Source: Caldalkalibacillus thermarum (GTDB lineage Bacteria; Bacillota; Bacilli; Caldalkalibacillales; Caldalkalibacillaceae). Taken from it: a stretch of DNA of 24,000 nucleotides. Below are positions 1 through 24,000 of the stretch, piece after piece. The position numbers and the translations under genes are program-made. The notes below the pieces were generated by a model. The model did no database searches. It was not told where the DNA came from and worked only from the letters and a program-made list of their open reading frames with translations. How positions within the stretch are numbered: position 1 is the stretch's first letter; each line of letters starts with the position of its first letter. The stretch covers positions 28,966 through 52,965 of the forward strand of contig NZ_BMKZ01000014.1 in the NCBI RefSeq assembly GCF_014644735.1, written 5' to 3'.

Positions 1-2802
1 CTCAAAAGGTTTATGTTCGCCTGTAACTTCATAATAAGTGCTTTCAATGTTAGCTAAGGCAATATAGTATGGCAGTAACAGTATTTCATTCCCCCATATT
101 TCTTTGTTATATTTATCCTTTAATTTTTCAGGGGGAATAGTGTGCATTAGCCGTGACAAAAACGTTCCTGTACCTGTAAACGGTTCTAAGATAACGACAT
201 CTTCATCTGCTAAGGAACGTGAAAATTCTTCTCGTAAAATGACATCTGAACTTTTAACCAGAAAGTCAACCAATTCAACCGGTGTATATACGATCCCAAG
301 ACGATCTGCTGTTTTAGGAAATGCAATTTTAAAGAACGTATCATATAAGTTGCTAAGAAAATGCTGTCTCTCCGTTTCCTTATCCATGCCTCGTGCCCGT
401 GTTTGCACACTCCGGTAAAATCCATCAAGGGCTCCCGTCTCTTTTTCGATAAAATCCCGGAAAACTTCCGTCACTTGATCCAGAGCTTGAGAGACAGGGT
501 TGTGTTGCAAAAAAGCATACTTATCAAACAGTGCATCAAACACCGGCTTTGTAATAATATGCTGAACAAGCATGGACAGGGCTTCGTCTTTAGTCACCAT
601 CGGATTGATAACTTCATGAAGTGAGCGTAAAAAATTTTCAAAGGTTGTTCTGGCACGATTACCAAGTTCACTGTTATGTTGTAATACTTGCTCAATGTGC
701 CGCTCTATCCTGCCAGCCACTTCTGCCACATCTTTGGCCCATGTTTCAAAGTAACGGCGATCCCCGACTTTTTCGACAATCCGCCCGATTAATGCTTTGC
801 GCAATTCGTTTCTGAACAAGTTCAATTTCATTTGCTCATATTTTTGTTCAGTTTTTTGGACGTCAATGATGACTTTGTCCTCGTCATCCGCTATATATTC
901 ATCTGTTTTTTTGGTGTTGTTTGTTTTGAGCCATATGGAGCGCACTTCTGCATCCAAACGCTCATCAATAGAGCGTAAAGCACCCAGAATTTGCCATACT
1001 GTGTCAAATTCCTTGTTTTTATCTAATGCTTCTTTGGGATCTTGATCAGGAGATACCAGCACCGGAATGATAACATAACCGTATTGTTTTCCTTCCGCTT
1101 TTCTCATTACACGTCCAACAGCCTGAACAACATCAACAACCGACCTGCGGGGACGCATAAATACAACCGCATCAAGGGCTGGTACGTCAATACCTTCTGT
1201 TAACACTTTGGCATTGCTGAGGATACGAGTAACATTTGGATCAAAACCATCTTTTAACCAAGCTATCTTTTGTTTTCTCTCTGAGGCTGGCATAGAACCA
1301 TCAACATGAATAACTTCAAATGAACGCCTGTTGAATTCATCTGGCATGTCATACGCATATAATTCCACAGTCTCCTTAAATTTTGAAGCAAATTGTTTGG
1401 AGTCTTTTATAGTACTGTTAAAAACAACAGCACGTTGCAAAGGTTTAACCTCACCTTGCAGAAGATGGCCATTTAAAGCACGCCAGCAACCGATCATTTT
1501 GGCCGCTTCCTGAACTTGTGGAGAATCTTCTTGGTTTAAGTATTGCAATAATTTTTCATGAACCTCTTCTTCATTAACAGTTAAAACGACAACTTTGTAG
1601 TCGGAAAGTATACCTTGATCAACTGCCTGCCCAAAACCCAAACGGTAAAACTCTTCTCCAAAGACATCCTTATCATCCATAGAATAGTAGTCATATCCAC
1701 TTTCATCTAGTTTTTGCTTTACTCTTGGAACAAAGACACGGGGGGTTGCTGTCATGTAAAGACGCTTTTTACCTTTTATCAAATCATTATCATGTATCAT
1801 ATGATAATACGAAGCCTCATCTGAATCTTGTGCTTTGGATACTCCTGTTGTCCGATGCGCCTCATCCGCAATAATCAGATCAAATTCTGATAATCCTTCT
1901 CTGTGAGCATCAACAATAACTTGAGAAGAATGATAGGTCGAAACGACGACTGTCATTTCATTTGACTGCACACTTTTAACCTGATTAACCAGATCCTCTG
2001 CATTGGTGGTAGGAGGGTAGGATAATAATGTTGTATCTCCCAACTGATCATCGTCTGTTCGGCCTACAGTATGATCACTCGTTACCGCAAATACCCTTAA
2101 CGGCGTATCTGCATCCTCAATCCATGCCCGAATGGTCTGTTCAACTAATGCTATAGAAGGAGCCATAAACAAAACCTTACCACCCGCTCCTACCATCTGT
2201 TCTGCCAGTTTCAAGGCGGTAAAAGTCTTTCCAGATCCCGGAGGCATAATTAATTTACCTCGGTCTGCACGTGTGAAGCCATCTATTACGGCATTGATAG
2301 CCTCCTTTTGATATTTACGGAGGTTTTTCTTACCAAAGGTTATTTCTTCCGGCTTTTGCCAATTAAACGACTCCCAGTTAATAGAGCTTTCCAGCATATC
2401 AGACAAAGTTAAGACTTTAACGGGCTTGTCCTGCTTGTCGATCAGTTTTTGAGCATTAGGACCAAGTGATGAAGATGTTACAATTAAACGATATGAAAAT
2501 TCTTTTCTGCCCGATAAAGCCAGAAACGTAGCAATATCATCCGCTCCCAAAGTTGTCTCATGGAATTTGATTTGTATGGCCCATAGATTGCCTGTGTGTC
2601 TTTCTTCAGCGACTGCATCTATTCCGGTATCACCCAATCCCTCTCTTTGAGGCCAGTCACGCCAACGCCATATTTCTGAAAACAGGTTTTGATAAAAAGG
2701 CGATTTTCTTAAGTAAGCAAGTGCAAAACGCTCAAACAACTCTCCTTTTTTTGTAGCAGAATCAATTTTTCTCCAATCCTTCAACTTATCAATAACGTCC
2801 AT
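1..2802 (-). CDS. Type ISP-like single-chain restriction-modification enzyme, N-terminal 934 aa (Mrr-like nuclease + SF2 DEAH translocase + start of N6-adenine methyltransferase); C-terminus lies beyond position 1
   Basis: Absent from the ORF track because it has no stop inside the window. My translation of the minus strand from ATG 2802-2800 (RBS GAGGGGGA, 2809-2816) stays open for 934 codons to base 1. Motifs read: PD-(D/E)xK-like GDTGIDAVA...WAIQIKF; helicase I MPPGSGKTF, II LIIADEAHRT, III LYMTATP, VI QAVGRVMRK; methylase motif-I-like LEPFTGTGTF near the edge. The domain order matches LlaGI/LlaBIII-type Type ISP enzymes. Confidence 0.8.
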   Translation of the reverse strand, partial: MDVIDKLKDWRKIDSATKKGELFERFALAYLRKSPFYQNLFSEIWRWRDWPQREGLGDTGIDAVAEERHTGNLWAIQIKFHETTLGADDIATFLALSGRKEFSYRLIVTSSSLGPNAQKLIDKQDKPVKVLTLSDMLESSINWESFNWQKPEEITFGKKNLRKYQKEAINAVIDGFTRADRGKLIMPPGSGKTFTALKLAEQMVGAGGKVLFMAPSIALVEQTIRAWIEDADTPLRVFAVTSDHTVGRTDDDQLGDTTLLSYPPTTNAEDLVNQVKSVQSNEMTVVVSTYHSSQVIVDAHREGLSEFDLIIADEAHRTTGVSKAQDSDEASYYHMIHDNDLIKGKKRLYMTATPRVFVPRVKQKLDESGYDYYSMDDKDVFGEEFYRLGFGQAVDQGILSDYKVVVLTVNEEEVHEKLLQYLNQEDSPQVQEAAKMIGCWRALNGHLLQGEVKPLQRAVVFNSTIKDSKQFASKFKETVELYAYDMPDEFNRRSFEVIHVDGSMPASERKQKIAWLKDGFDPNVTRILSNAKVLTEGIDVPALDAVVFMRPRRSVVDVVQAVGRVMRKAEGKQYGYVIIPVLVSPDQDPKEALDKNKEFDTVWQILGALRSIDERLDAEVRSIWLKTNNTKKTDEYIADDEDKVIIDVQKTEQKYEQMKLNLFRNELRKALIGRIVEKVGDRRYFETWAKDVAEVAGRIERHIEQVLQHNSELGNRARTTFENFLRSLHEVINPMVTKDEALSMLVQHIITKPVFDALFDKYAFLQHNPVSQALDQVTEVFRDFIEKETGALDGFYRSVQTRARGMDKETERQHFLSNLYDTFFKIAFPKTADRLGIVYTPVELVDFLVKSSDVILREEFSRSLADEDVVILEPFTGTGTFLSRLMHTIPPEKLKDKYNKEIWGNEILLLPYYIALANIESTYYEVTGEHKPFE

Positions 2803-2817
2803 TCAAATCCCCCTCAA

Positions 2818-3378
2818 TCAAAACGCCTTTTGTCTGACTCCCCTGACTTCATGACAATCCACGCACCGTGGCTCATACAGATCATCGGCTCCCACCACAA
2901 TCACGGGATCATCCACATGGGCCGGCTGACCATCAATCAACCGTTGGGTTCTGGTGGCCGGTCTGCCGCAACGGGCACACTTGGCATAAAGACGAGTGAC
3001 TGAGTGGCTGATGGCAACCAAGTATGGCATCGGAGGAAACGGTTCCCCCCGAAAGTCCAGATCAAGTCCGGCACAGATAACCTTGTAACCCTGATTTGCC
3101 AGTTTTCGGCATACTGATCCAATCATAATATCAAAAAAATGTACTTCGTCTATGGCTATGTATTCTGCTTTTCCATTAACATGATCCAGTATTTCTTCTG
3201 CTCTGTCAATCAAAACGGCTTCCAACGTATCCCCGTTGTGGGAAACAATGTGACCGGTACTGTACCGGTTGTCCAGCTTCGGCTTAAACGCCAGCATGTT
3301 TTTGCCCTCTACACGCCGGATCAGTTCGGTTGTTTTGCCAGCAAACATGCAACCGTATATGGTTTCGATATGTCCCAT
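2818..3378 (-). CDS. tdk: thymidine kinase
   Basis: 186 aa. P-loop YGCMFAGKTTELIRR, IAIDEVHFFD, CAGLDLDFRGEPF, and a C-terminal zinc ribbon CARCGRPA...CVDCH, all typical of type II thymidine kinases. RBS AGGAGGTG upstream of ATG 3378. Confidence 0.9.
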   Translation of the reverse strand: MGHIETIYGCMFAGKTTELIRRVEGKNMLAFKPKLDNRYSTGHIVSHNGDTLEAVLIDRAEEILDHVNGKAEYIAIDEVHFFDIMIGSVCRKLANQGYKVICAGLDLDFRGEPFPPMPYLVAISHSVTRLYAKCARCGRPATRTQRLIDGQPAHVDDPVIVVGADDLYEPRCVDCHEVRGVRQKAF

Positions 3379-7287: not shown

Positions 7288-7308
7288 CAGAATTCCACGA
7301 CCTTTTTT

Positions 7309-7348
7309 GCGCAGGGGTCCTCCCAATTCATTGGGAGGGGGAATGCGC
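7309..7348 (-). other. composite hairpin directly after the iscB stop (candidate right-end subterminal hairpin or terminator)
   Basis: Perfect 9 bp stem CCTCCCAAT/ATTGGGAGG (7319-7338, 2 nt loop) enclosed by an outer 5 bp stem GCGCA/TGCGC (7309-7313 with 7344-7348). Confidence 0.6.
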
Positions 7349-7351
7349 CGC

Positions 7352-8647
7352 TTATGACGCATACCCATACCCATCATTTTTATGAATAATTCTTAAATAT
7401 TTCGGATGAACGTCAAACCCGTTTAACCTGAAACTTGGACGATGACGTATCTGAATACGTCCGATATGAACACCTTCATATTTCCCCTTTGGTATCACAG
7501 CTTTTACTATGTCACCCGTCATGAAACCAAGATAGGTTCGCTTTTTTTGGCGGTGACTTTGCGGAAAGCCGTACCTGTCAACGTTGCACATCCGGCGCGT
7601 GCCGTGGCCCTTTGCGATGATTTTTAAAACCTGCATGTCGGGATCAAGACGGACATTTTCGCCGCTCTTTCCAACACATGCGGCGTCAATCCAATGCGCT
7701 TTCGGATATTACTGTGCGCTTCGATTATACTTCGTTCGACCACCGGTTCCAATTTCAAGTTCCAATCCCAATTCTTTCAGACGGTCAAACAAAACCCATC
7801 GTGACGCGTTGATCGCCGCCGCGTCCCTGAGCGGTGTCTTAAGCTGTGCTTTGATGCGTCCGGCACGTTCAGGATCATGTGCAAGGAATTCTTCAAGTGA
7901 ACGGTTGTCTTTTTCCCGGTTACAATCATGGCATGCAATGACAAGGTTGGATACCCGGTCACTTCCGCCTTTTGAACGAGGTATAACATGTTCGATCTCA
8001 AACGGTACATTCTCCACGTCACAATACACACAACGGCGGCCAAACTTATCCAGTAGATACTCCTTCACTTCATATCCGAAGAGTGTCCCTTGCTGGTATT
8101 CGATGCCCTTGATCTCAGGATTTTGCAACTTCTGAGTATCGAACCGCGCAAGTTCCAGCGAAAGGTGCGCAAGAGGCACAAACTTCCGCAAGCGGCGTAC
8201 CCATGTGAATACGTTGAAAACGCGACTCATGATGCTCGGCGGAAGCCATCCTTTCGGACGCCGGCGGTTGAGATACCGTGGTGCGCGATACCGTGTCTTG
8301 CGATTCCGGCGCAAACGCCGAAGGGACCGCCGTTCCAAAAGTGCAGTACGGATCTGTTCGCCCCTATGGTACAGTTCTGCGGCCCAGATGACGGTCTTCC
8401 CACATTGGAATTCACCAACGAGTGATATGCCTGTGACTTTTGAGCCCGGATCAATCTTGAGCCTGACTGTCTGGATGTCTTTGCCGTCATCCCGTGCTTC
8501 GCGGTCTTTAAGCAGGATCGTAAATGGATAACGGCGATAGACGGCGGCACGTCCTTTCCTGAGCAGTTTTCGCGCCCTTGCGGGATGACACGGCATGAGT
8601 GGATTTCCTTTCCTGTCTACAACAAAAACTCGATTAACAGTCTTCAT
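7352..8647 (-). pseudogene. iscB: iscB (RNA-guided RuvC/HNH nuclease) interrupted by a single in-frame TAA at 7709-7711
   Basis: ATG 8647 (MKTVNRVFVVDRKGNPLMPCHPARARKLL, the PLMP domain) with AAGGAGGGG upstream. RuvC-I RLKIDPGSKVTGISL. Arg-rich bridge helix RRSLRRLRRNRKTRYRAPRYLNRRRPKGWLPPS. RuvC-II LSLELARFD. HNH CVYCD...EIEHVIPRSKGGSDRVSNLVIACHDCNREK. Then ...KYNRSAQ-TAA-YPKAHWIDAACVG (RuvC-III) continues in the same frame into track ORF 7352..7636 (TID-like LGFMTGDIVKAVIPKGKYEGVHIGRIQIR). I verified the frame continuity codon by codon. Confidence 0.85.
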
Positions 8648-8890
8648 TGCGGTTACCCGCCCCTCCTTGTGGGTAATGTGGGCCTCGCCAATGTTATCCC
8701 GGCTTGTCCTGTCCGGCACACTGGCTTCAACCCCGTATGCCTGTTTAATGCCGGACGGCAGTTGCCCGAAGCTGGCCCAAGCACCCCGGGGTGCCATGAC
8801 CGGGATAACGTAGCCCATTGACCTTGCGGCCCGGGCTGAGGCTGGTCAACTCCAAGGCTTCATGCCTCCGTCTTTAGACGGGGGTAGTTG
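8648..8890 (-). ncRNA. candidate omegaRNA scaffold of the IscB element
   Basis: About 240 nt of GC-rich sequence immediately 5' of iscB on the same strand, which is the canonical position for IscB omegaRNA. It is dense in local helices, for example CCGTCTAAAGACGG, GCACCCCGGGGTGC and TGCCGTCCGGCA. The long N-terminal extension of track ORF 7709..8818 falls here and lacks an RBS. The ends are not determined. Confidence 0.5.
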
Positions 8891-9165
8891 ACGACCGTCT
8901 CAATCACATCTTTTTCCGTTTCGATGGTCTCATACAAAATTCCGATCAAGTCTTCCTGAAGCTCTTGTTTGGTTTCCGGATGATTGTCCAAAACGTTTCT
9001 CAATTCCGGATCGTAGAAGATGTTCAGATTCACAAAGCATACATCTTGGCTTTCTTCCACATCTGCATCAACATGTGCCTCGCCCACAACCATGTTGTCC
9101 TGAAGTGTTATTTTTGCCGTACAAACATGATCTCCTTTGGTAATTTCTGAAAGAGTGTAACGCAT
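8860..9165 (-). CDS. acidic hypothetical protein (101 aa as found); 3' end altered by the IscB-element insertion
   Basis: ATG 9165 with AAAGGAGG upstream. The last 9 codons (NYPRLKTEA) lie inside the inferred element. Removing the element gives ...DVIETVVEF-TGA followed by a hairpin plus T-run. Confidence 0.7.
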   Translation of the reverse strand: MRYTLSEITKGDHVCTAKITLQDNMVVGEAHVDADVEESQDVCFVNLNIFYDPELRNVLDNHPETKQELQEDLIGILYETIETEKDVIETVVNYPRLKTEA

Positions 9166-11336: not shown

Positions 11337-13223
11337 TCAAAATAGTTCCTGCCTGATACGGCGTTTTTTAACCTCTTTTTTGTTTTCATCTCTGCCATTT
11401 TCTGTTTCTTCTTTTACAGCATCACCCCTTTCAAGCGGTTCATTTTGCGGCACTTCTCTTTCATGTGAATGTTCGTGTGAATGTGGCACTTCTTCTGAAA
11501 CGGATACGACAGTCTTTTCACACTCAGGGGCTGGATCGTCCGTGCCAGTAGCCTGCATTGGCTGGGAATCCAACCAGACCACACGGCCCGGTTCGCTTCC
11601 GGGTTGGCTTTGCGAAGCGAAGACAACAGGCTCCGCTTCAACAAAACGTATTTTTCTAACTTCAAAATCCGTTTTGGAGGCCTGAGCGGTGTGGCGGGCA
11701 GATGAACCGGCTGATTCACTGCCCGCAACAGGCGTCCATTCGCCCTCCACTGTCCAACGGCCGTTTTGGTCAAATGTTTTTTCCCGCTTCTTAAAAGCGT
11801 AGCGTCCCGGCTCTGCCGGGTTGGCTTTGCGAAGTGAAGACAACAGGTCAAATATTGACCGTTTTTTCACTTCCGCCCGCTCCACCCATTCCCGCCGCTT
11901 TTTCCAGTCACGAGGGATGAATCTGCCTTTGCCTATCTTCGGCGGTTGCGGTGTGCCATCTTTAAGCAATTTGTACACAAAGTGGAAACGGGGCAGGCCG
12001 TCCATCAGTTGAGTGTAAAAAAAGCGGTATTCTTCCTGCTCCGTGTCCCGATAGCTGGCCGGAAAGATGTTGGCCCCGATAACCCTCGTGTCATAGGTGG
12101 CCTGCCGGACAATGATCTGTTTCTTGCCAAATTCCTCTGCAAATTCTTTGGCATCTTCGCTGGTTATGCCGCCAAAACAGATTTTGTTGCGACAGCCGTT
12201 CAGTATGGCCCGCTTTACGGCTCGACCACTCATCTTGCCCGTCTCCACTTCCAACTGGCTCAAGGATTGGCAGGCAAAGATACCGGCCACCCGGTACTCG
12301 GCCGCTATGTTCAGAAAACGCTCAATGTCCGGGTTGATATACCGGGAATACTCGTCCACGATGAGAAAGTGGGGGACACGGGTCTTTTCCGTCCCCCCAC
12401 GCCTGAATGTCCCTGATTGCAAATGCATGATGATGTACTGGCCAAATGCGTCCCCGCTTGAACCCAATTCGCCCAAAGCCGTGTTGACCGCCAAAATGCC
12501 ACCTTCTTCAAAGTGACGATCTATGTCAAAACTGGATTCTCCCGTCATGATGGAACGCAAATGACGGTTGGCCGTGAGATTCTCCAACTGGGCACGAAGC
12601 CCGATCACAAACTGGCGGTATTTGTCTTTCATGGCCCCCAACAGTTCCGCCTTGAAAAACTTGGTCAGATCATCTTCTCCCTGCCGGTTAACCAGTTCGT
12701 TCACCTTGTATTCCAACAGCTTCAGATCACGCAAGGTGTTGACCACGTCTCCCAAATCCAGACGGTCACCCTGAAGCCGTTTCAACAGCTTGGTCACGTT
12801 GCGGGCCGATACTTCCTGCACGGTGGCGAAAAAGGCTTCCTGTTTGCCAAACAGGCTCTTTAACACCGCCACCGTGGCCTCGGCTACGGTATCTTCATCT
12901 CCCACCATCGGGTTGAAACGGTGACTCTCATAGGACGGATCATAACCGGCACTTTCTGCATACCCACGCTTCTGTGCCGGGTCTATATGCACAAAGTCAA
13001 GTCCCATTTCCTCACACATCTCCCGTACCATAAACGCCACGTCCCCTTTCGGCTCAATCACCGAAAGGCCCAGTTTCTTACCCTTGGCTTTCTGCACCAA
13101 TAGATTGTAAATGATTGGTTTCAAAATGGTTGCCGTCTTTCCACAACGAGTGGGACCCACCACCAGCATGTGGGTAAAAGCGTCACTCCCACCCCAGATG
13201 ATCGGCCTGTCCAAAATCAACAC
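11337..13223 (-). CDS. VirD4/TraG-type conjugative coupling ATPase (T4CP) lacking an N-terminal TM domain, with a long acidic/His-rich C-terminal tail
   Basis: Walker A VVGPTRCGKT lies about 20 aa from the N-terminus. Walker B PHFLIVDEYSRY. Also FACQSLSQLE and NKICFGGITSEDAKEFAEEFG, typical of TraG/TraD/VirD4 proteins. The start codon is uncertain: GTG 13223 directly abuts GGGAGG, and TTG codons lie a few nt downstream. Confidence 0.8.
   Translation of the reverse strand: MLILDRPIIWGGSDAFTHMLVVGPTRCGKTATILKPIIYNLLVQKAKGKKLGLSVIEPKGDVAFMVREMCEEMGLDFVHIDPAQKRGYAESAGYDPSYESHRFNPMVGDEDTVAEATVAVLKSLFGKQEAFFATVQEVSARNVTKLLKRLQGDRLDLGDVVNTLRDLKLLEYKVNELVNRQGEDDLTKFFKAELLGAMKDKYRQFVIGLRAQLENLTANRHLRSIMTGESSFDIDRHFEEGGILAVNTALGELGSSGDAFGQYIIMHLQSGTFRRGGTEKTRVPHFLIVDEYSRYINPDIERFLNIAAEYRVAGIFACQSLSQLEVETGKMSGRAVKRAILNGCRNKICFGGITSEDAKEFAEEFGKKQIIVRQATYDTRVIGANIFPASYRDTEQEEYRFFYTQLMDGLPRFHFVYKLLKDGTPQPPKIGKGRFIPRDWKKRREWVERAEVKKRSIFDLLSSLRKANPAEPGRYAFKKREKTFDQNGRWTVEGEWTPVAGSESAGSSARHTAQASKTDFEVRKIRFVEAEPVVFASQSQPGSEPGRVVWLDSQPMQATGTDDPAPECEKTVVSVSEEVPHSHEHSHEREVPQNEPLERGDAVKEETENGRDENKKEVKKRRIRQELF
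11600..11630. repeat. 31 bp direct repeat, copy A (partner at 11817-11847)
   Basis: CGGGTTGGCTTTGCGAAGCGAAGACAACAGG versus the same sequence with one C-to-T change at 11817-11847. The offset is 217 bp, so the two copies are translated in different frames of the T4CP tail. Confidence 0.85.
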
Positions 13224-13319
13224 CTCCCAAAAACATTGTCACAAATGGGGCTGGAAGGTATGGGGCTGGCAGGGATGTGGGAGAAGATTCGGCCCTTGCT
13301 TAGCAAAGTCAATCACTAT

Positions 13320-13355
13320 TGGAATATGGCGTTCAAATGGAATATGGCGTTCAAA
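13320..13355. repeat. perfect 2 x 18 bp tandem repeat in the spacer between the 4-TM gene and the T4CP gene
   Basis: TGGAATATGGCGTTCAAA occurs at 13320-13337 and 13338-13355. Nearby, ATGGGGCTGG occurs twice (13245-13254 and 13260-13269). Confidence 0.85.
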
Positions 13356-13870: not shown

Positions 13871-14067
13871 CAGTTCACTCCCCTCATGCCCTCCTTCCGT
13901 ATGGTGTACTCGTACATGTGGATAACAAATTCGATTTCATCGGCCATGATCTCACGCATCATCAGGTATATCTCCCACTGTTCCTCCGGGGTGTATTCCA
14001 TCAATTGTTCTTTAATATCTGGTATGTTCACTATTTCACAAATGGTCTTCAGGCCCTCAATCAGCAT
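13870..14067 (-). CDS. small acidic hypothetical protein (65 aa)
   Basis: ATG 14067 lies 8 nt after AAGGAG. It overlaps both neighbours (7 nt and 1 nt), which suggests translational coupling. Confidence 0.6.
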   Translation of the reverse strand: MLIEGLKTICEIVNIPDIKEQLMEYTPEEQWEIYLMMREIMADEIEFVIHMYEYTIRKEGMRGVN

Positions 14068-15044
14068 ATTCCCAACTCCTTATCCGTGATTTCGATAACC
14101 TCAATCCCCCGCATGTCTTTTAAACGCTCTTCAATGTCGTAACTGAACAACTCATGTGTAAACACCATGACTTCCTTGTCGTGCCGCTCCCTTTTCATCC
14201 TGTCCAACAACGCCAAATCGTTCATCATCAGATCGGCCACGTATTTTTCAGATTCCCCGCATCGAATGATGTAGGGATACACGCTTTTTAAATGATCATG
14301 ATTCTCTCTTGCTTCACCATGTTTTGTGATTAAATTCACAAGGTGTTGACTCCCTTGGTAATGCCTTAGATACTGACACGCAAATCCAAACGGCATCAGA
14401 CAGGCACTCGCCAGTACATGACTGTCCATCATGCCCAAAAATTCATCGTAACTCTTCACGCCTCTAAATAATATCAGGTTCCGACACAAGGGCACTTCCA
14501 TTGTGTTTTTTTCCGCTTCAAAAAGCACACGCCTTAAAGTGCTTTCCCGTGCTCCACCCTTGATGATGTACACAAAATATTCATTTCCATCACGGTCTAT
14601 GATGGAACCTTTGTACAAATCTCCCCGATTGGTACGGTACTTCTTCTTCAGTTCCCGTGAGTCGACAAACGTGTATCCACTGTCTTTCAACTCCACATAC
14701 AGGTCTACAAAATCCAGATAACTGTCCATGTTCTCTTTCTTGATATGCAAATCCTTAGCCTCTATTTCCTCATCACCTATTAACTGATGTTCCCGCAATA
14801 CCCTTAATCCCCTGTCTGTAATGTAATGCACCGCTTCTATCCTGCTTGCGTCCGATAAATGCCGTGCAATCTTCCTAGACCTTATCCACCCGCTGTTCCT
14901 CATGATATATAGCTTGCGATAGGTATACGCTTCATGCTCCCCAAAATACAACCGCCTAATCTGCTCCCCGTTCATTACCCTAAACCTGTATAAATCTCGC
15001 AATATCCCCAAATCCCGCTCCGTCACCTGCTTGATTACCTGCAT
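14061..15044 (-). CDS. Replic_Relax (replication-relaxation) family protein, 327 aa
   Basis: Track ORF 14061..15290 starts at an RBS-less GTG. ATG 15044 follows AAAGGGGAGAAGTG. The N-terminus VTERDLGILRDLYRFRVMNGEQIRRLYFGEHEAYTYRKLYIMRNSGWIRSRKI...VHYITDRGLRVL fits the winged-helix pattern I associate with that family. Confidence 0.6.
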   Translation of the reverse strand: MQVIKQVTERDLGILRDLYRFRVMNGEQIRRLYFGEHEAYTYRKLYIMRNSGWIRSRKIARHLSDASRIEAVHYITDRGLRVLREHQLIGDEEIEAKDLHIKKENMDSYLDFVDLYVELKDSGYTFVDSRELKKKYRTNRGDLYKGSIIDRDGNEYFVYIIKGGARESTLRRVLFEAEKNTMEVPLCRNLILFRGVKSYDEFLGMMDSHVLASACLMPFGFACQYLRHYQGSQHLVNLITKHGEARENHDHLKSVYPYIIRCGESEKYVADLMMNDLALLDRMKRERHDKEVMVFTHELFSYDIEERLKDMRGIEVIEITDKELGIC

Positions 15045-15186
15045 CACTTCTCCCCTTTCACCATGGCTGTCTTGGCTGTGGTTTTTTCCTCCGGCTTTGC
15101 TCAGGCTCGACCCAAGGTCTCGCACCGCAAATCCGTCCGTCAAAACCACACTCCCTTCAAACCGAATGACTGCCTCCCAACACAAA

Positions 15187-15302
15187 ACCTTTACCGTAAA
15201 ATCGGGATGGCTGTCTGTGTTTACTCCGTCTACCTTTACGGTAGCCGTTCGTAAACACACCGTAAAAGAGAACACCTGTTCCGTTTGCACCTTTACCGTA
15301 AA
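15187..15302. repeat. array A: ACCTTTAC(C/G)GTA repeats built on the palindrome TTTAC-N-GTAAA
   Basis: ACCTTTACCGTAAA at 15187-15200 and 15289-15302. ACCTTTACGGTAGC at 15232-15245. An ACCGTAAA half-site at 15259-15266. Confidence 0.8.
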
Positions 15303-18033: not shown

Positions 18034-18324
18034 TTAAGGTGCGGTGCTGACCAAATCTTCAAGAATCTGTACAATTGTCGGGGCCAGCCAAACCAAGATA
18101 AAACCGAAAATAGCCATAATTAGAGTACCGCCTCCGGCTCCCCTCATACGTGACGAACCAAACAACATCCCCACAATCAGTACAATGCCACCTAATCCAA
18201 ACATCACTAGAAAGATTGGTACGCTGATCTGTTGCAAAAGATAGAAAAACTGCAAGATAACCCCAACCAACCAGTCCGTAAACTGCTCCAATGACATTGG
18301 TCTGATCTCAACATTGCGTTCCAA
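18034..18324 (-). CDS. small membrane protein (about 96 aa, 2-3 TM), possible TcpE/ConC/VirB2-position component
   Basis: Track ORF starts at GTG 18333, abutting AAGGAGGG. TTG 18324 has 9 nt spacing. Hydrophobic segments WLVGVILQFFYLL, VPIFLVMFGLGGIVLIVGMLF and LIMAIFGFILVWLAP. The functional role is inferred from size and context only. Confidence 0.55.
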   Translation of the reverse strand: MERNVEIRPMSLEQFTDWLVGVILQFFYLLQQISVPIFLVMFGLGGIVLIVGMLFGSSRMRGAGGGTLIMAIFGFILVWLAPTIVQILEDLVSTAP

Positions 18325-18922
18325 CGTATACACCCTCCTTGAAAAATAGATAACCCTGTGCCATCAACACGTTGCTGTCAGTCAGTTGTTCAAATTCCCT
18401 TTTGTCTTCCACCCCCTCCACGATAATTGACCTCTTTTCTTCCTGCAAAAACTTCTGACACCACTTTTGCTTAATCTCATCAACATGCACCTTGAATCCC
18501 GTCACATCCTGTTGTTTCCAAAAGCTGTATGTCCGTTCGGTCACGTCATCCACCCACACTTCCAGCCCCCTGCTTTTGAACTTCTCAATCAAGGAGGGAA
18601 TCCGGGCATATGCATTTGGTGGTTTTCCAGAGAGATTCCACTCCACAATTTCAATGCCGCCATCCCAGACAAAGGAAGACTCAGCCAGAAAGGGAAGGCT
18701 GTCCAATGTAATGTTGATCAGTTTTGGAAAAAAGGCCTGCATTGAAAGTGCCTTTTCAATGCAGACCCGTTCCCTGTCCCACAAAGCATATACATCAGTC
18801 ACATCAAAATACCGCCCAACACTCATACCCGTTGGACGGCAAAGATATTCTTCGTATACCGTTTCCCTTTGAGACAAATGGACAACAGGCTCCTTTGCCA
18901 TCTTAATCTCTGTTTTTACCAA
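18308..18922 (-). CDS. stand-alone minimal EAL-like domain protein (204 aa), probably degenerate
   Basis: TTG 18922 lies 7 nt after AAGGAGGGGA. EAL-domain landmarks appear in the correct order: INITL (N of NLS), IEIVEW (ExTE), GLEVWVDDVTERTYSF (DDFGTGYS region, degenerate), FKVHVD (KxD), IIVEGVEDKREFEQL (EGVE), AQGYLFFKE (QGYxF). The EAL triad position reads YAL, and the segment after it is shortened. Confidence 0.5.
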   Translation of the reverse strand: MVKTEIKMAKEPVVHLSQRETVYEEYLCRPTGMSVGRYFDVTDVYALWDRERVCIEKALSMQAFFPKLINITLDSLPFLAESSFVWDGGIEIVEWNLSGKPPNAYARIPSLIEKFKSRGLEVWVDDVTERTYSFWKQQDVTGFKVHVDEIKQKWCQKFLQEEKRSIIVEGVEDKREFEQLTDSNVLMAQGYLFFKEGVYVGTQC

Positions 18923-18942: not shown

Positions 18943-20559
18943 TCAGTAGACAAATTGCAAATAAGGCATGGGATCAACCGGTGAACCGTTGATCCGCACT
19001 TCAAAGTGCAAATGAGGCCCCGTTGACCTGCCTGTACTGCCAACCGTTCCAATAATCTGACCCCTAAGAACATCATCTCCCACTCTTACTGATGTACTCC
19101 AAAGATGGGCATATAATGTTCTCAATCCTGAACCATGCTCAATCACCACGTAATTACCATAACCTCCGCCGCATGATTGATTGCCTTCACGACAATGGCT
19201 TACAACCGTGACCACCCTACCGCTTTCCGCCGCCACAACTGGTACATGACGGGGAGCGCCGATGTCCACGCCGTTGTGAAAACTTCTCTGTCCCGTTATG
19301 GGATGAACACGAGGGCCGAATGGTGACGTGATCCGGCTGTGACCGGGGACCGGCCACGCAAGCTGACCACTGCCTCCACCAACCGTCATAGTTTGTGATA
19401 AACTTAATACTCTGTCAGCATAGGCATAACTTCCGCCCGAATAACGATACAAGGCCTGACGTGGATCTTCATTGATACCCAATACTGACAGATAATAGGC
19501 CGCACTATAAATGGCATCAATCGGGTTGAACGGGTCAGCTTTGCCGTCCCCATCCCCGTCAATGCCATAAATGGCCCATGTAGAGGGAAGAAACTGCATT
19601 AACCCTTGAGCTAACTCTCCCGTCCGGTTGGGCGGCCCCACCGCATTTGGATTAAATGAAGACTCCACAAAGGCAACCGCTACTAGTATCATCCAGTCCA
19701 CATTGTATCTTTTCCCCGCATCCTGAAAGGCCTGTATCCATTCCGGCGGAAGATTGGAAAAGTCAATGCCTCCAATGTTGAGATAGTTTGAATAACCGGG
19801 CATTCCTATCAGAAAGCCAAAATGTTCATTTCCCGTTCCGGCGGAAAATGCCGTTTCTAAAATCAGCGTCCGGTCATCTTCACTGACCCGATCCATGTCC
19901 AGATAACGTTTGATCACATCATCCAGACGTTCGTAACTTTGTTTAAAATCAATGCCGGATACCACTTCCTGTGTAATTGTCACTTTGGTGTTATCCCATT
20001 CATACTCAACCGTTTCCCATTCATAGGAATAGAAATATGTTCCCCGAAAGGTGTCGGCAGTGACCAACAACAGAACCTCATCAACAACTGTCTCGGTTTC
20101 CACAACCTCTTCCTGTACAATAACCGTCTCACCCGTTTCATCCACTTCTTCCTTTTCAACAATCTTTTTTGTTTCAGTCACAATCGTAATGGTACTGTCC
20201 TTGTATTCAAACTTCGGAGCCAGTCTTTCAGCAAGCCTCCTGATATTGTTGTAAGGAAGCTCACCACTTCTTTCCAATTCGGCACTGTACAAGTCAACTG
20301 CATAAACAAGACCCCAGTGCAGTTTGTATTTTAATTCTTCGGCATTGTAGCTCTTTACACCCGGAAAAGCACTTTCCGCCGCTTCAAGATACTTTTGTCT
20401 CAAAGCCTCATCTTCTTCATTTGCTTCATTTGATCCGGTAAGATCACCCATCGCTACGTTGCCAAAAAATGCGGAAATGTAAAGAATGGGCAAACCTATC
20501 AGAATCCCAAATACAATCACCAAAACAACAACAACAATTCTGAGCCGTCTATTCCTCAT
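18943..20559 (-). CDS. membrane-anchored bifunctional cell-wall hydrolase (SLT lytic transglycosylase + M23 peptidase), T4SS-associated
   Basis: N-terminal TM IVVVVLVIVFGILIGLPILYI. SLT motifs VAFVESSFNPNAV, GLMQF and AAYYL. M23 motifs HNGVDIGAP, GNYVVIEHGSGLRTLYAHL and GSTGRSTGPHLHFEV. Confidence 0.9.
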   Translation of the reverse strand: MRNRRLRIVVVVLVIVFGILIGLPILYISAFFGNVAMGDLTGSNEANEEDEALRQKYLEAAESAFPGVKSYNAEELKYKLHWGLVYAVDLYSAELERSGELPYNNIRRLAERLAPKFEYKDSTITIVTETKKIVEKEEVDETGETVIVQEEVVETETVVDEVLLLVTADTFRGTYFYSYEWETVEYEWDNTKVTITQEVVSGIDFKQSYERLDDVIKRYLDMDRVSEDDRTLILETAFSAGTGNEHFGFLIGMPGYSNYLNIGGIDFSNLPPEWIQAFQDAGKRYNVDWMILVAVAFVESSFNPNAVGPPNRTGELAQGLMQFLPSTWAIYGIDGDGDGKADPFNPIDAIYSAAYYLSVLGINEDPRQALYRYSGGSYAYADRVLSLSQTMTVGGGSGQLAWPVPGHSRITSPFGPRVHPITGQRSFHNGVDIGAPRHVPVVAAESGRVVTVVSHCREGNQSCGGGYGNYVVIEHGSGLRTLYAHLWSTSVRVGDDVLRGQIIGTVGSTGRSTGPHLHFEVRINGSPVDPMPYLQFVY

Positions 20560-21980: not shown

Positions 21981-23144
21981 CTACCACCAAAGTCCTCTTA
22001 GGATATTTACGATCAAAACAGCACCAATGCTGATAAAAAAACCAAAGGCACTGTACTGCAATCCCTTGATGGCCGAATAGCGCATACTTGGATTCTTGGA
22101 ACTCACCGCCAGTCTCAGAGCGTTCCACAGCAACACCCCTGCGGCCACAACAGCACTGCTCAAGAATATGAAGGTCATGATCGGTTGCAGAACACTTCCT
22201 ACAGAGTTAAACATATTACCTGAACCCAAGCTGGCGTTTAGAAAACCGAAATACAACACGATTACCAATGCATGAGCCGTTTGCATGAAAATCTGGGAAG
22301 TCAATTCAGCCGCCCAAAGTTTAAAAGCCATACCGTCTTTGTTGCGGGCAAAAGCCCACGCCGCAAAAGGAGCTATGATCACCAAAACCGCAATCATGAA
22401 CTTGCGGAAAATGTACAGAATAATTAACCACAAACCCATGACAGCCAAAGCAAGATAGATGATCGAATCCAAAAACACACTTTCTGTTAACGACTGATCT
22501 GTATTGATGGTGGAAAAAGCGGAAAAGCCCGACTCCAACAGCGGAATATTTCTGGCAAATGAATACAGTCCGTCAACAAAAGCCTTGTTCAGATTGGCCA
22601 AAAGAAAGAACAGAAGATGGGCAAGCACGAGCAGGATAGATGCCCCAATATAGGCCATCATTTTGTCCTGCCAGTCAGACCGCTTGAGTGGATTGGTGCT
22701 TTCAATCATCATTTTCCATCCGTAAAAACCAATGGAAATGGCGAAAAATATCCAAGCGACCGAACTGAAAGCCAGCCTTAACGGATTGATCACGTTGTTC
22801 CATTCCTGAGCCGTAAATATGTTGCCTACAGCATTTTCTCCGTATAAAGCCCCCGAAAAAGGATTGGCCTGCCCGAATACAACATGCTTTATGCTTGTGC
22901 CTCCCAACAGATAAGCGGCAAAATCAACCACTGCATTTATCAGGGCGGCCAGCAATCTTTCCAGCATGCCAGACCTTTTCGTTTTTTCCATGACCTCTTG
23001 ACGCAATTCTTCATCCGGTGAATAGGGAACGTCACCTCTGAACTGCTCAGGAACAGGTTCAACGGCCAATACTGTTACTTGTCCAAGAAAGGAAGCATAT
23101 AAAAAGACAGACAACATAAGCACAACAAATGTTTTCTTCTTCAT
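21981..23144 (-). CDS. polytopic membrane protein with signal peptide (387 aa), possible VirB6/TcpH/ConG-like channel component
   Basis: ATG 23144 overlaps the upstream stop (ATGA). Signal-like N-terminus MKKKTFVVLMLSVFLYASFLG, then at least 6 hydrophobic segments. It sits directly after the VirB4-like gene, the usual position of VirB6 analogues in Firmicutes T4SS loci. No sequence motif confirms the role. Confidence 0.6.
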   Translation of the reverse strand: MKKKTFVVLMLSVFLYASFLGQVTVLAVEPVPEQFRGDVPYSPDEELRQEVMEKTKRSGMLERLLAALINAVVDFAAYLLGGTSIKHVVFGQANPFSGALYGENAVGNIFTAQEWNNVINPLRLAFSSVAWIFFAISIGFYGWKMMIESTNPLKRSDWQDKMMAYIGASILLVLAHLLFFLLANLNKAFVDGLYSFARNIPLLESGFSAFSTINTDQSLTESVFLDSIIYLALAVMGLWLIILYIFRKFMIAVLVIIAPFAAWAFARNKDGMAFKLWAAELTSQIFMQTAHALVIVLYFGFLNASLGSGNMFNSVGSVLQPIMTFIFLSSAVVAAGVLLWNALRLAVSSKNPSMRYSAIKGLQYSAFGFFISIGAVLIVNILRGLWW

Positions 23145-24000
23145 GACGTTTTCCTTCCTCCGGGAGTCGTGTTTACAAACTCATGTTCATAAAAAGAAGC
23201 ATCAATACGAATCGAAAGCAAATTTTTCCCGATCTTCAACAACGCTTCACCGGGATGGGCACTTTCAAGAAACTGCCTTTGCCCATCAGACAAATGGTAC
23301 TGAGCCTGCACATATTCAATGTCTGTCTCATTCTGTTTGAGCAAAACAGTGGCTGAAGCGTTAGTCAAAACGGCTTTACCCTGCTGTGATCTGGTAAACT
23401 CTTCAAAGGATTGAGAAGCCACGCAAAAGCTGGTGTTTCTTTTGCGACAACGTCTGCTCATCTTCTCCAGAAACATGGCCGAATCCTCGTGATACATGTA
23501 CATCCACGCTTCATCGGCCACCACCAGCTTACGCACATGACGGTTCCGCTTGACAAATTTCTCCCATATCCAGTTTAGAATGACGTGCATGGCCAACGGC
23601 TTCATAATCCCCTCTTCAAGATGTGAAATGTCAAAGTCAATGGCCACGGCATCTTTCAGCCGCACACGGCTTTGTCCGTCAAAAAGACCCAACGGGTTTC
23701 CCCTGCGATAGGGAAAAAGCAGTGTGGCCAGACGTTGGCCAACTTCCGTCCCCTGTTCCTCCAGCCACTCAACGGCTTCACTGATGGTAGGCATCTCTTT
23801 TTTGCGGTAGCCCACATACCCCGGACGGGGATCAGGCTCATAAAGGGAGTTGGGGTCAGATGTAATCTGCCGCTTGCTGTATAAGGACATGATACACCGA
23901 TCCAGTACGGCGTTTTCTTCCGGTGAAAGACGATAGCCGCCATTATTGGTGAACATGACGTTAAACAGGTTCTTGATGTCCTGCATTTTCTCGTGCAGAT
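23141..24000 (-). CDS. VirB4/TrsE/ConE/TcpF-type T4SS ATPase, C-terminal about 286 aa (5' end beyond window)
   Basis: The reading frame is open upstream of the track's ATG 23986 to the window edge (..LHEK-MQDIK). Walker B-like KLVVADEAWMYM, FCVASQSFEEF and VLLKQNETD match the C-terminal half of VirB4-family proteins. Confidence 0.8.
   Translation of the reverse strand, partial: LHEKMQDIKNLFNVMFTNNGGYRLSPEENAVLDRCIMSLYSKRQITSDPNSLYEPDPRPGYVGYRKKEMPTISEAVEWLEEQGTEVGQRLATLLFPYRRGNPLGLFDGQSRVRLKDAVAIDFDISHLEEGIMKPLAMHVILNWIWEKFVKRNRHVRKLVVADEAWMYMYHEDSAMFLEKMSRRCRKRNTSFCVASQSFEEFTRSQQGKAVLTNASATVLLKQNETDIEYVQAQYHLSDGQRQFLESAHPGEALLKIGKNLLSIRIDASFYEHEFVNTTPGGRKTS

Follow-up and report, generated by a model that had tools for sequence, protein, structure and literature searches.

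A derived nonsense codon probably inactivates iscB in a non-autonomous OMEGA element of Caldalkalibacillus thermarum with a preserved ωRNA

Within the 24,000 nucleotides of Caldalkalibacillus thermarum DNA analysed here (the window), an iscB gene is interrupted by a premature stop codon. It is very probably an ordinary pseudogenised iscB within a non-autonomous IS200/IS605-type IscB/ωRNA (OMEGA) element whose ωRNA is preserved. Comparison of copies gave the whole element a length of ∼1.6 kb (7294..8892, minus strand). Positions 8647 to 7352, read on the minus strand, form a single 431-codon iscB frame, and its sole internal stop is a TAA at codon 313 (7711..7709). The element is of a known kind that automated annotation had already named IscB; it opens no new question and is of little import beyond annotation. 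RefSeq calls the 312-aa fragment an RNA-guided endonuclease IscB without any truncation flag, and in the mining of thermophile IscB proteins for genome editing the entry (WP_229703978.1) should be treated as a fragment.

The iscB frame starts at ATG 8647 with MKTVNRVFVVDRKGNPLMPC and runs for 312 codons to ...GGRTKYNRSAQ and the TAA, after which it continues in the same frame with YPKAHWIDAACVGKSGENVRLDPDMQVLK down to the terminal TAA (7354..7352). Neither a frameshift nor a second premature stop was found along the 431 iscB codons from ATG 8647. The two ORFs listed for this region, 7709..8818 and 7352..7636, are thus pieces of one frame. A preliminary description of this DNA had claimed that they were one gene split by a single in-frame TAA with no other lesion, and both parts of this claim hold, given the continuous minus-strand frame and homologues that align without gaps on either side. 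The longer ORF (369 aa) has an identical entry in GGK22827.1, with the locus tag GCM10010965_14670 on a contig of 71,392 bp. Its 57 extra N-terminal codons overlap the ωRNA and have no counterpart in any homologue. Homologues begin at MKTVNRV and RefSeq likewise uses the start at 8647 for the 312-aa version; judged from these alignments, the 57-codon extension is spurious. The 312-aa product itself is identical to WP_229703978.1, which is named 'RNA-guided endonuclease IscB [Caldalkalibacillus thermarum]'.

The codons before the stop (1-312; 7712..8647, minus strand) encode the PLMP domain, RuvC-I, the bridge helix, RuvC-II and HNH, as assigned by Pfam, NCBIfam and the identity with the RefSeq protein. 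The Pfam profile RRXRR (PF14239) was matched over its whole length (1-174) with 3e-71, upstream of the stop, and the PLMP domain is recognisable by NPLMPC at residues 15-20. HNH, HNH_4 and HNH_5 matched residues 206-257, also upstream of the stop. This HNH domain is placed between RuvC-II and RuvC-III, and the Cys, His and Asn of its motif are invariant in the homologue alignment. A profile search on the conceptual read-through protein, which the preliminary description had suggested, gave an alignment that spans the stop: the NCBIfam equivalog guided_IscB (NF040563) scored 456.3 bits over residues 7-326 (cut-off 175 bits). Full-length homologues at 65-81% identity align ungapped on either side of codon 313. 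Chance cannot account for matches of this strength.

The remainder of iscB (codons 314-431; 7355..7708, minus strand), which should stay untranslated, aligns with homologues without gaps and encodes RuvC-III and the C-terminal TAM-interacting region. RuvC-I D66 (in IDPG) and RuvC-II E165 are encoded before the stop, while the RuvC-III residues H318 and D321 follow it by 5 to 8 codons. They were located with a PDB sequence search, which returned IscB structures (TbaIscB, OgeuIscB 7XHT/7UTN and others) and aligned PKAHWIDAA after the stop to PKDHYLDA of solved IscB chains, so that the RuvC-III His and Asp correspond to codons 318 and 321. The complete split RuvC (Asp, Glu, His, Asp) is consequently not contained in one translatable frame, with H318 and D321 present only in the DNA. 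In solved IscB complexes, a C-terminal domain of ∼90 residues contacts the TAM. Its counterpart is missing from the predicted product; codons 340-431 are ungapped against full-length homologues but lie behind the stop. All landmarks named in the preliminary description (PLMP, RuvC-I, -II and -III, bridge helix, HNH and TAM-interacting domain) are therefore encoded, as seen in the Pfam, NCBIfam, homologue and PDB alignments. The positions of the motifs relative to codon 313 likewise bear out its reading of the truncated product as HNH plus RuvC-I and -II without RuvC-III and the TAM-interacting domain.

An IscB split into two polypeptides was considered and rejected. There is no in-frame ATG, GTG or TTG between the stop and position 7636. 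The start at 7636, the first in frame after the stop, is already past the RuvC-III motif and lacks a Shine-Dalgarno sequence. A two-piece enzyme is not plausible for these reasons.

In its domain order (PLMP, RuvC-I, bridge helix, RuvC-II, HNH, RuvC-III, C-terminal domain), the encoded protein resembles OgeuIscB (PDB 7XHT/7UTN) and the IscB element of Geobacillus stearothermophilus (Meers et al., bioRxiv 10.1101/2023.03.14.532601), but it is only distantly related to the solved IscB proteins (E about 1e-29 to 1e-45). As in other IscB-ωRNA elements, a HEARO-type ωRNA that starts at the transposon end lies directly upstream. In contrast to these systems, the window copy has a premature TAA before RuvC-III and is predicted to be inactive.

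The closest relative is a sister copy in C. thermarum strain TA2.A1 (AFCE01000094.1, proteins EGL83626.1 and EGL83627.1; L001 5288-6888), which is 97.6% identical over 1601 bp. This match takes in the entire 1.6-kb element, and the two copies share their ends and the ωRNA. At codon 313 all three close DNA relatives, namely the sister copy and two copies from other samples (L042 and L043, ∼80% identical), carry GAA. The residue aligned to this codon in 11 protein homologues is Glu, Asn or Gly. Since all close relatives have GAA, the TAA of the window (7709..7711, minus strand) is, on this comparison, a derived nonsense mutation, a G→T transversion that changed Glu313 to a stop. The sense codon at this position, which the preliminary description had proposed to look up in an alignment, is thus GAA (Glu). 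Restoring Glu313 could rebuild an enzyme that is predicted to be probably active.

The sister copy has its own nonsense codon. Although it has GAA at codon 313, it carries TAG instead of CAG at codon 98. This change is present in three independent assemblies and splits the gene into calls of 154 aa and 283 aa. The copy also has replacements at two otherwise invariant glycines, G133R and G410R. A further relative with 81% identity from metagenomes (P0080; L044 1155-2776, also L045 and L046) is interrupted near codon 309 by an insertion with an rve-family (IS3-like) transposase, only a few codons from the position of the codon 313 stop. The breaks in the sister copy and in this relative are genuine, as several assemblies show for each, so decay is the norm in this clade. 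No intact protein with ≥90% identity was found in a collection of 15 billion proteins. Its clusters at this level contain nothing but fragments of the lineage, and intact IscB proteins reach 81% identity at most. In a scan of genome contigs, the matches were distant relatives only (≤58% identity), with no Caldalkalibacillus locus among them. Look-ups of the exact 312-aa, 369-aa, 94-aa and flanking 101-aa products yielded no independent assembly of the window copy, an exact DNA scan around the stop had no match in JGI metagenomes, and a full-text literature search for premature stops in IscB returned nothing relevant.

The two C. thermarum copies differ also at the 3' end of the gene. The sister copy and 81%-identical relatives extend 7 residues beyond the terminal TAA of the window (from Lys432 to ...AAHSPSQ). 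This TAA (7352..7354, minus strand) corresponds to AAA (Lys) in the relatives, from which it was derived, and the sister copy keeps AAA at codon 432 together with the longer C-terminal tail. The AAA→TAA change is the second new TAA within the window lineage.

Pairwise dN/dS between the two C. thermarum copies was 0.26. The differences were polarised with L042 and L043 as outgroups, which assigned eight nonsynonymous (V51A, R82C, S112L, E132K, E200D, E313*, R363Q and K432*) and three synonymous changes to the window lineage, as compared with four nonsynonymous and seven synonymous changes in the TA2.A1 lineage. With these small counts, the window lineage has an ω of approx. 0.81, which is indistinguishable from neutral (p=0.73), and the TA2.A1 lineage one of approx. 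0.17 (p=0.005 against neutral); the difference between the two lineages is not significant (p=0.2). Catalytic residues are untouched by the replacements specific to the window. The substitutions of the window lineage are compatible with relaxed constraint, their number being too small for proof, and the constraint on this copy may have been relaxed for some time. A very recent inactivation, as might be read from the dN/dS of 0.26, is not supported, since polarisation put the purifying signal mostly into the lineage of the other copy.

The preliminary description had offered three options for the stop, namely very recent inactivation, an error or a tolerated stop. Real inactivation is the best supported of them because the close relatives all carry GAA, but the term 'very recent' had to be softened because seven other derived amino-acid or stop changes stand against three synonymous ones (ω approx. 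0.8).

It is unlikely that the TAA arose from faulty sequencing or assembly and that iscB is in fact intact, with Glu313. The codon differs from the GAA of the relatives by one base, the remaining frame is undamaged and only one assembly of the window copy is on record, all of which would fit an error. However, the site lies outside a homopolymer (GCACAGTAATATCC) and consensus substitution errors are generally rare in short-read assemblies. The same lineage has, moreover, acquired seven other derived amino-acid or stop changes including the second new TAA at the normal end, and the genuine breaks in the sister copy and the 81%-identical relative, found in several assemblies each, also speak against an error here.

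The part of the gene after the stop is no more diverged from the sister copy than the part before it (98.0% vs 97.2% identity). Such a clean frame with an undiverged post-stop part is also expected of an intact gene or of one that is read through. Together with the fully preserved ωRNA, it would suit a tolerated stop, by which low-level read-through of the TAA yields a little full-length IscB and limits the dose of a potentially toxic nuclease. This explanation is nevertheless extremely unlikely: the stop is absent in every relative and is therefore not a conserved feature, neighbouring genes use TAA as an ordinary terminator, and the base after the premature TAA is a T. UAAU is a strong termination context in bacteria, and no recoding signal was seen. 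An alternative genetic code was rejected as TAA, TAG and TGA each terminate neighbouring ORFs, and a suppressor tRNA encoded within the window was rejected as the window contains no tRNA gene.

Under the favoured explanation, a pseudogenised iscB, the ancestral IscB with its ωRNA would have cut the empty donor site left by TnpA-mediated excision, and recombination after this cut would have restored the element. Such homing is established for related elements, and for this one we infer it. In the window copy, a single G→T transversion turned the GAA of Glu313 into TAA. Translation should end at codon 312 and give a 312-aa protein with PLMP, RuvC-I, bridge helix, RuvC-II and HNH. As this protein has neither the RuvC-III His and Asp nor the TAM-interacting domain, it should fail in target recognition and in forming the RuvC fold, and the nuclease activity of the window copy is predicted to be lost.

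The ωRNA scaffold (HEARO RNA; 8673..8892, minus strand) is apparently intact. It matched the full model (1-211) of Rfam RF02033 with 149.4 bits (gathering score 83) on the same strand as iscB and ends 25 nt before the iscB ATG. Its identity with the sister copy is 99.1%; with more distant copies, whose coding sequences are only 77-80% identical, it is 90-93%. From its sequence, the ωRNA still looks functional. Between 8498 and 8892, which covers the ωRNA and the first 50 iscB codons, there are two adjacent differences to the sister copy in 395 nt, in comparison to 34 differences in the remaining 1204 nt (Fisher p=0.005). This low divergence may possibly result from a constraint on the ωRNA and transposon end that reaches into the ORF or from gene conversion.

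The conserved ωRNA could also be seen as a sign that the 312-aa protein works with it in a new role. In analogy to nuclease-dead TnpB derivatives, this might be RNA-guided binding or regulation, or nicking by HNH alone. Two strains keep a near-identical ωRNA with the nuclease gene knocked out by different nonsense codons, and the 395 nt of ωRNA and first 50 codons are the more conserved part, both of which would agree with such a role. It is, however, hardly credible. The truncations to 97 aa and 312 aa mean that no common product is preserved, and the window protein lacks the TAM-interacting domain and part of the RuvC core, on which folding and recognition of DNA depend in solved IscB structures. 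An ω of approx. 0.8 in the window lineage argues against selection on the protein, and the ωRNA, which doubles as the transposon end, would be highly conserved in any case. Part of the catalytic apparatus is also lost in IsrB, which is naturally without HNH, and in TldR, the nuclease-dead repressors derived from TnpB. These are, however, conserved and selected proteins with intact frames, whereas the loss in the window is an unconserved, lineage-specific nonsense codon. In the two C. thermarum strains, the nuclease gene was interrupted independently with the ωRNA left nearly invariant. That the host or the conjugative element therefore selects against active IscB and retains the RNA or a truncated RNA-binding protein for a different purpose (e.g. 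RNA-guided regulation), or that a leaky TAA acts as a dosage valve, is highly improbable.

The preserved ωRNA of the presumably decayed gene marks one end of the element. The copies become similar at precisely 8892, where the HEARO model has its first base (GTCAACTACCCCCG), and cease to be so at ∼7294 (...GCAAAAAAGGTCGTGGA). All relatives start at the same base with GTCAACTACCCCCG, and identical ends lie amid unrelated flanks in the window, L001, L042 and L044. The limit on the 3' side is uncertain by ∼5 nt, as GTGGA is either the end of the element or the TAM. Among the three copies compared, GTGGA follows ...AAGGTC in both C. thermarum copies and GTGGG takes its place in L042. Read on the iscB strand, this motif of the far end may be the TAM. 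The GC content of the element is 51.8% in comparison to 44.3% for the rest of the window. A DNA fold placed a subterminal hairpin at 7309..7349 (no strand assigned), on the far side from the ωRNA, which is the left end by the TnpA convention. It consists of an 8-bp stem, CCTCCCAA/TTGGGAGG, within a 5-bp outer stem and is kept in L001 and L042; taken alone, it is not significant (z = -1.7). No Y1_Tnp match was obtained among the window ORFs scanned and the element contains no tnpA, which is typical of IscB-ωRNA elements, as is its orientation, the same as that of the upstream gene. A nearby tnpA accompanies only ∼1.5% of iscB genes and is absent in about 98%, and IscB elements tend toward the orientation of the upstream gene (bioRxiv 10.1101/2023.03.14.532601).

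The insertion site could be compared with an uninterrupted homologue on the TA2.A1 contig L001, where the sister copy itself occupies a different site. The homologue reads ...GATTGAGACGGTC/ACGGATTTCTGA (the slash denotes the point of insertion) and shows that the insertion was a simple one without target duplication. The two C. thermarum copies and this empty homologous site make a clean small example of the boundaries, insertion and decay of IscB elements. The insertion replaced the last codons of a host 101-aa ORF (8860..9165, minus strand), as seen from its homologue at L001 23-313. The homologue ends with ...IETVTDF*. In the window, the ORF continues into the ωRNA as ...IETV-VNYPRLKTEA*, its three final codons (TDF*) having given way to ten codons (VNYPRLKTEA*) of the 5' ωRNA stem. 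The element is oriented as this upstream ORF. Since the 101-aa ORF and the ωRNA share their orientation, the ωRNA may be a product of read-through transcription. The preliminary description had mentioned neither the ωRNA nor the boundaries of the element nor the sister copy and its separate nonsense codon.

In the published anatomy of IscB elements, the guide lies outside the transposon end that bounds the ωRNA (bioRxiv 10.1101/2023.03.14.532601). The flank at 8893..8910 (minus strand), which differs in every copy, would accordingly supply the guide portion of the ωRNA. The flanks 5' of the ωRNA are unrelated among the window, L001, L042, L043 and L044, as expected if flanks supply the guide. 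The TA2.A1 empty site (L001 about 270-320) matches the last 14 nt of the presumed guide of the window exactly (TGATTGAGACGGTC); these are followed by ACGGA at the empty site and by GTGGA in the window. For an active nuclease, the empty site would be a near-cognate target of homing.

The gene neighbourhood fits the earlier placement of the element in the cargo region of a conjugative element, which is a reasonable reading of the Pfam matches nearby. These comprise a type IV coupling protein (11337..13223), a Replic_Relax protein (14061..15290), an SLT+M23 cell-wall hydrolase (18943..20559) and a TraG/VirB4 P-loop protein (23141..23986), all on the minus strand; a pilin-like membrane protein also belongs to this upstream minus-strand conjugation cluster. 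The coupling protein is 57-61% identical to those on 100-130-kb plasmids of Brevibacillus and Lysinibacillus. Megablast against PLSDB plasmids with the element and the conjugation region as queries gave no match. The contrast with a chromosome drawn in the preliminary description need not hold, as an integrative conjugative element would itself be chromosomal. Downstream of the element, there are small ORFs of unknown kind and a thymidine kinase (2818..3378). A Type ISP restriction-modification enzyme (1..2802, minus strand; Mrr_cat_2, ResIII/helicase, ISP_coupler and the start of N6_Mtase) runs off the window. The sister copy sits in a related mobile region that also has thymidine kinase and restriction-modification genes. 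There, a cytosine methylase and an EcoO109I-type endonuclease take the place of the Type ISP enzyme, so the defence cargo differs between the related elements. Between the coupling-protein gene and the ORF that follows it, there are two short tandem repeats (13245-13355), one of 15 bp in 2.2 copies and a perfect one of 18 bp in two copies, which could be an origin-of-transfer or regulatory region. A 204-aa ORF in the conjugation cluster (18308-18922, minus strand) matched the C-terminal half of the EAL domain (cyclic-di-GMP phosphodiesterase) below threshold, with 30.6 bits against a cut-off of 31.3.
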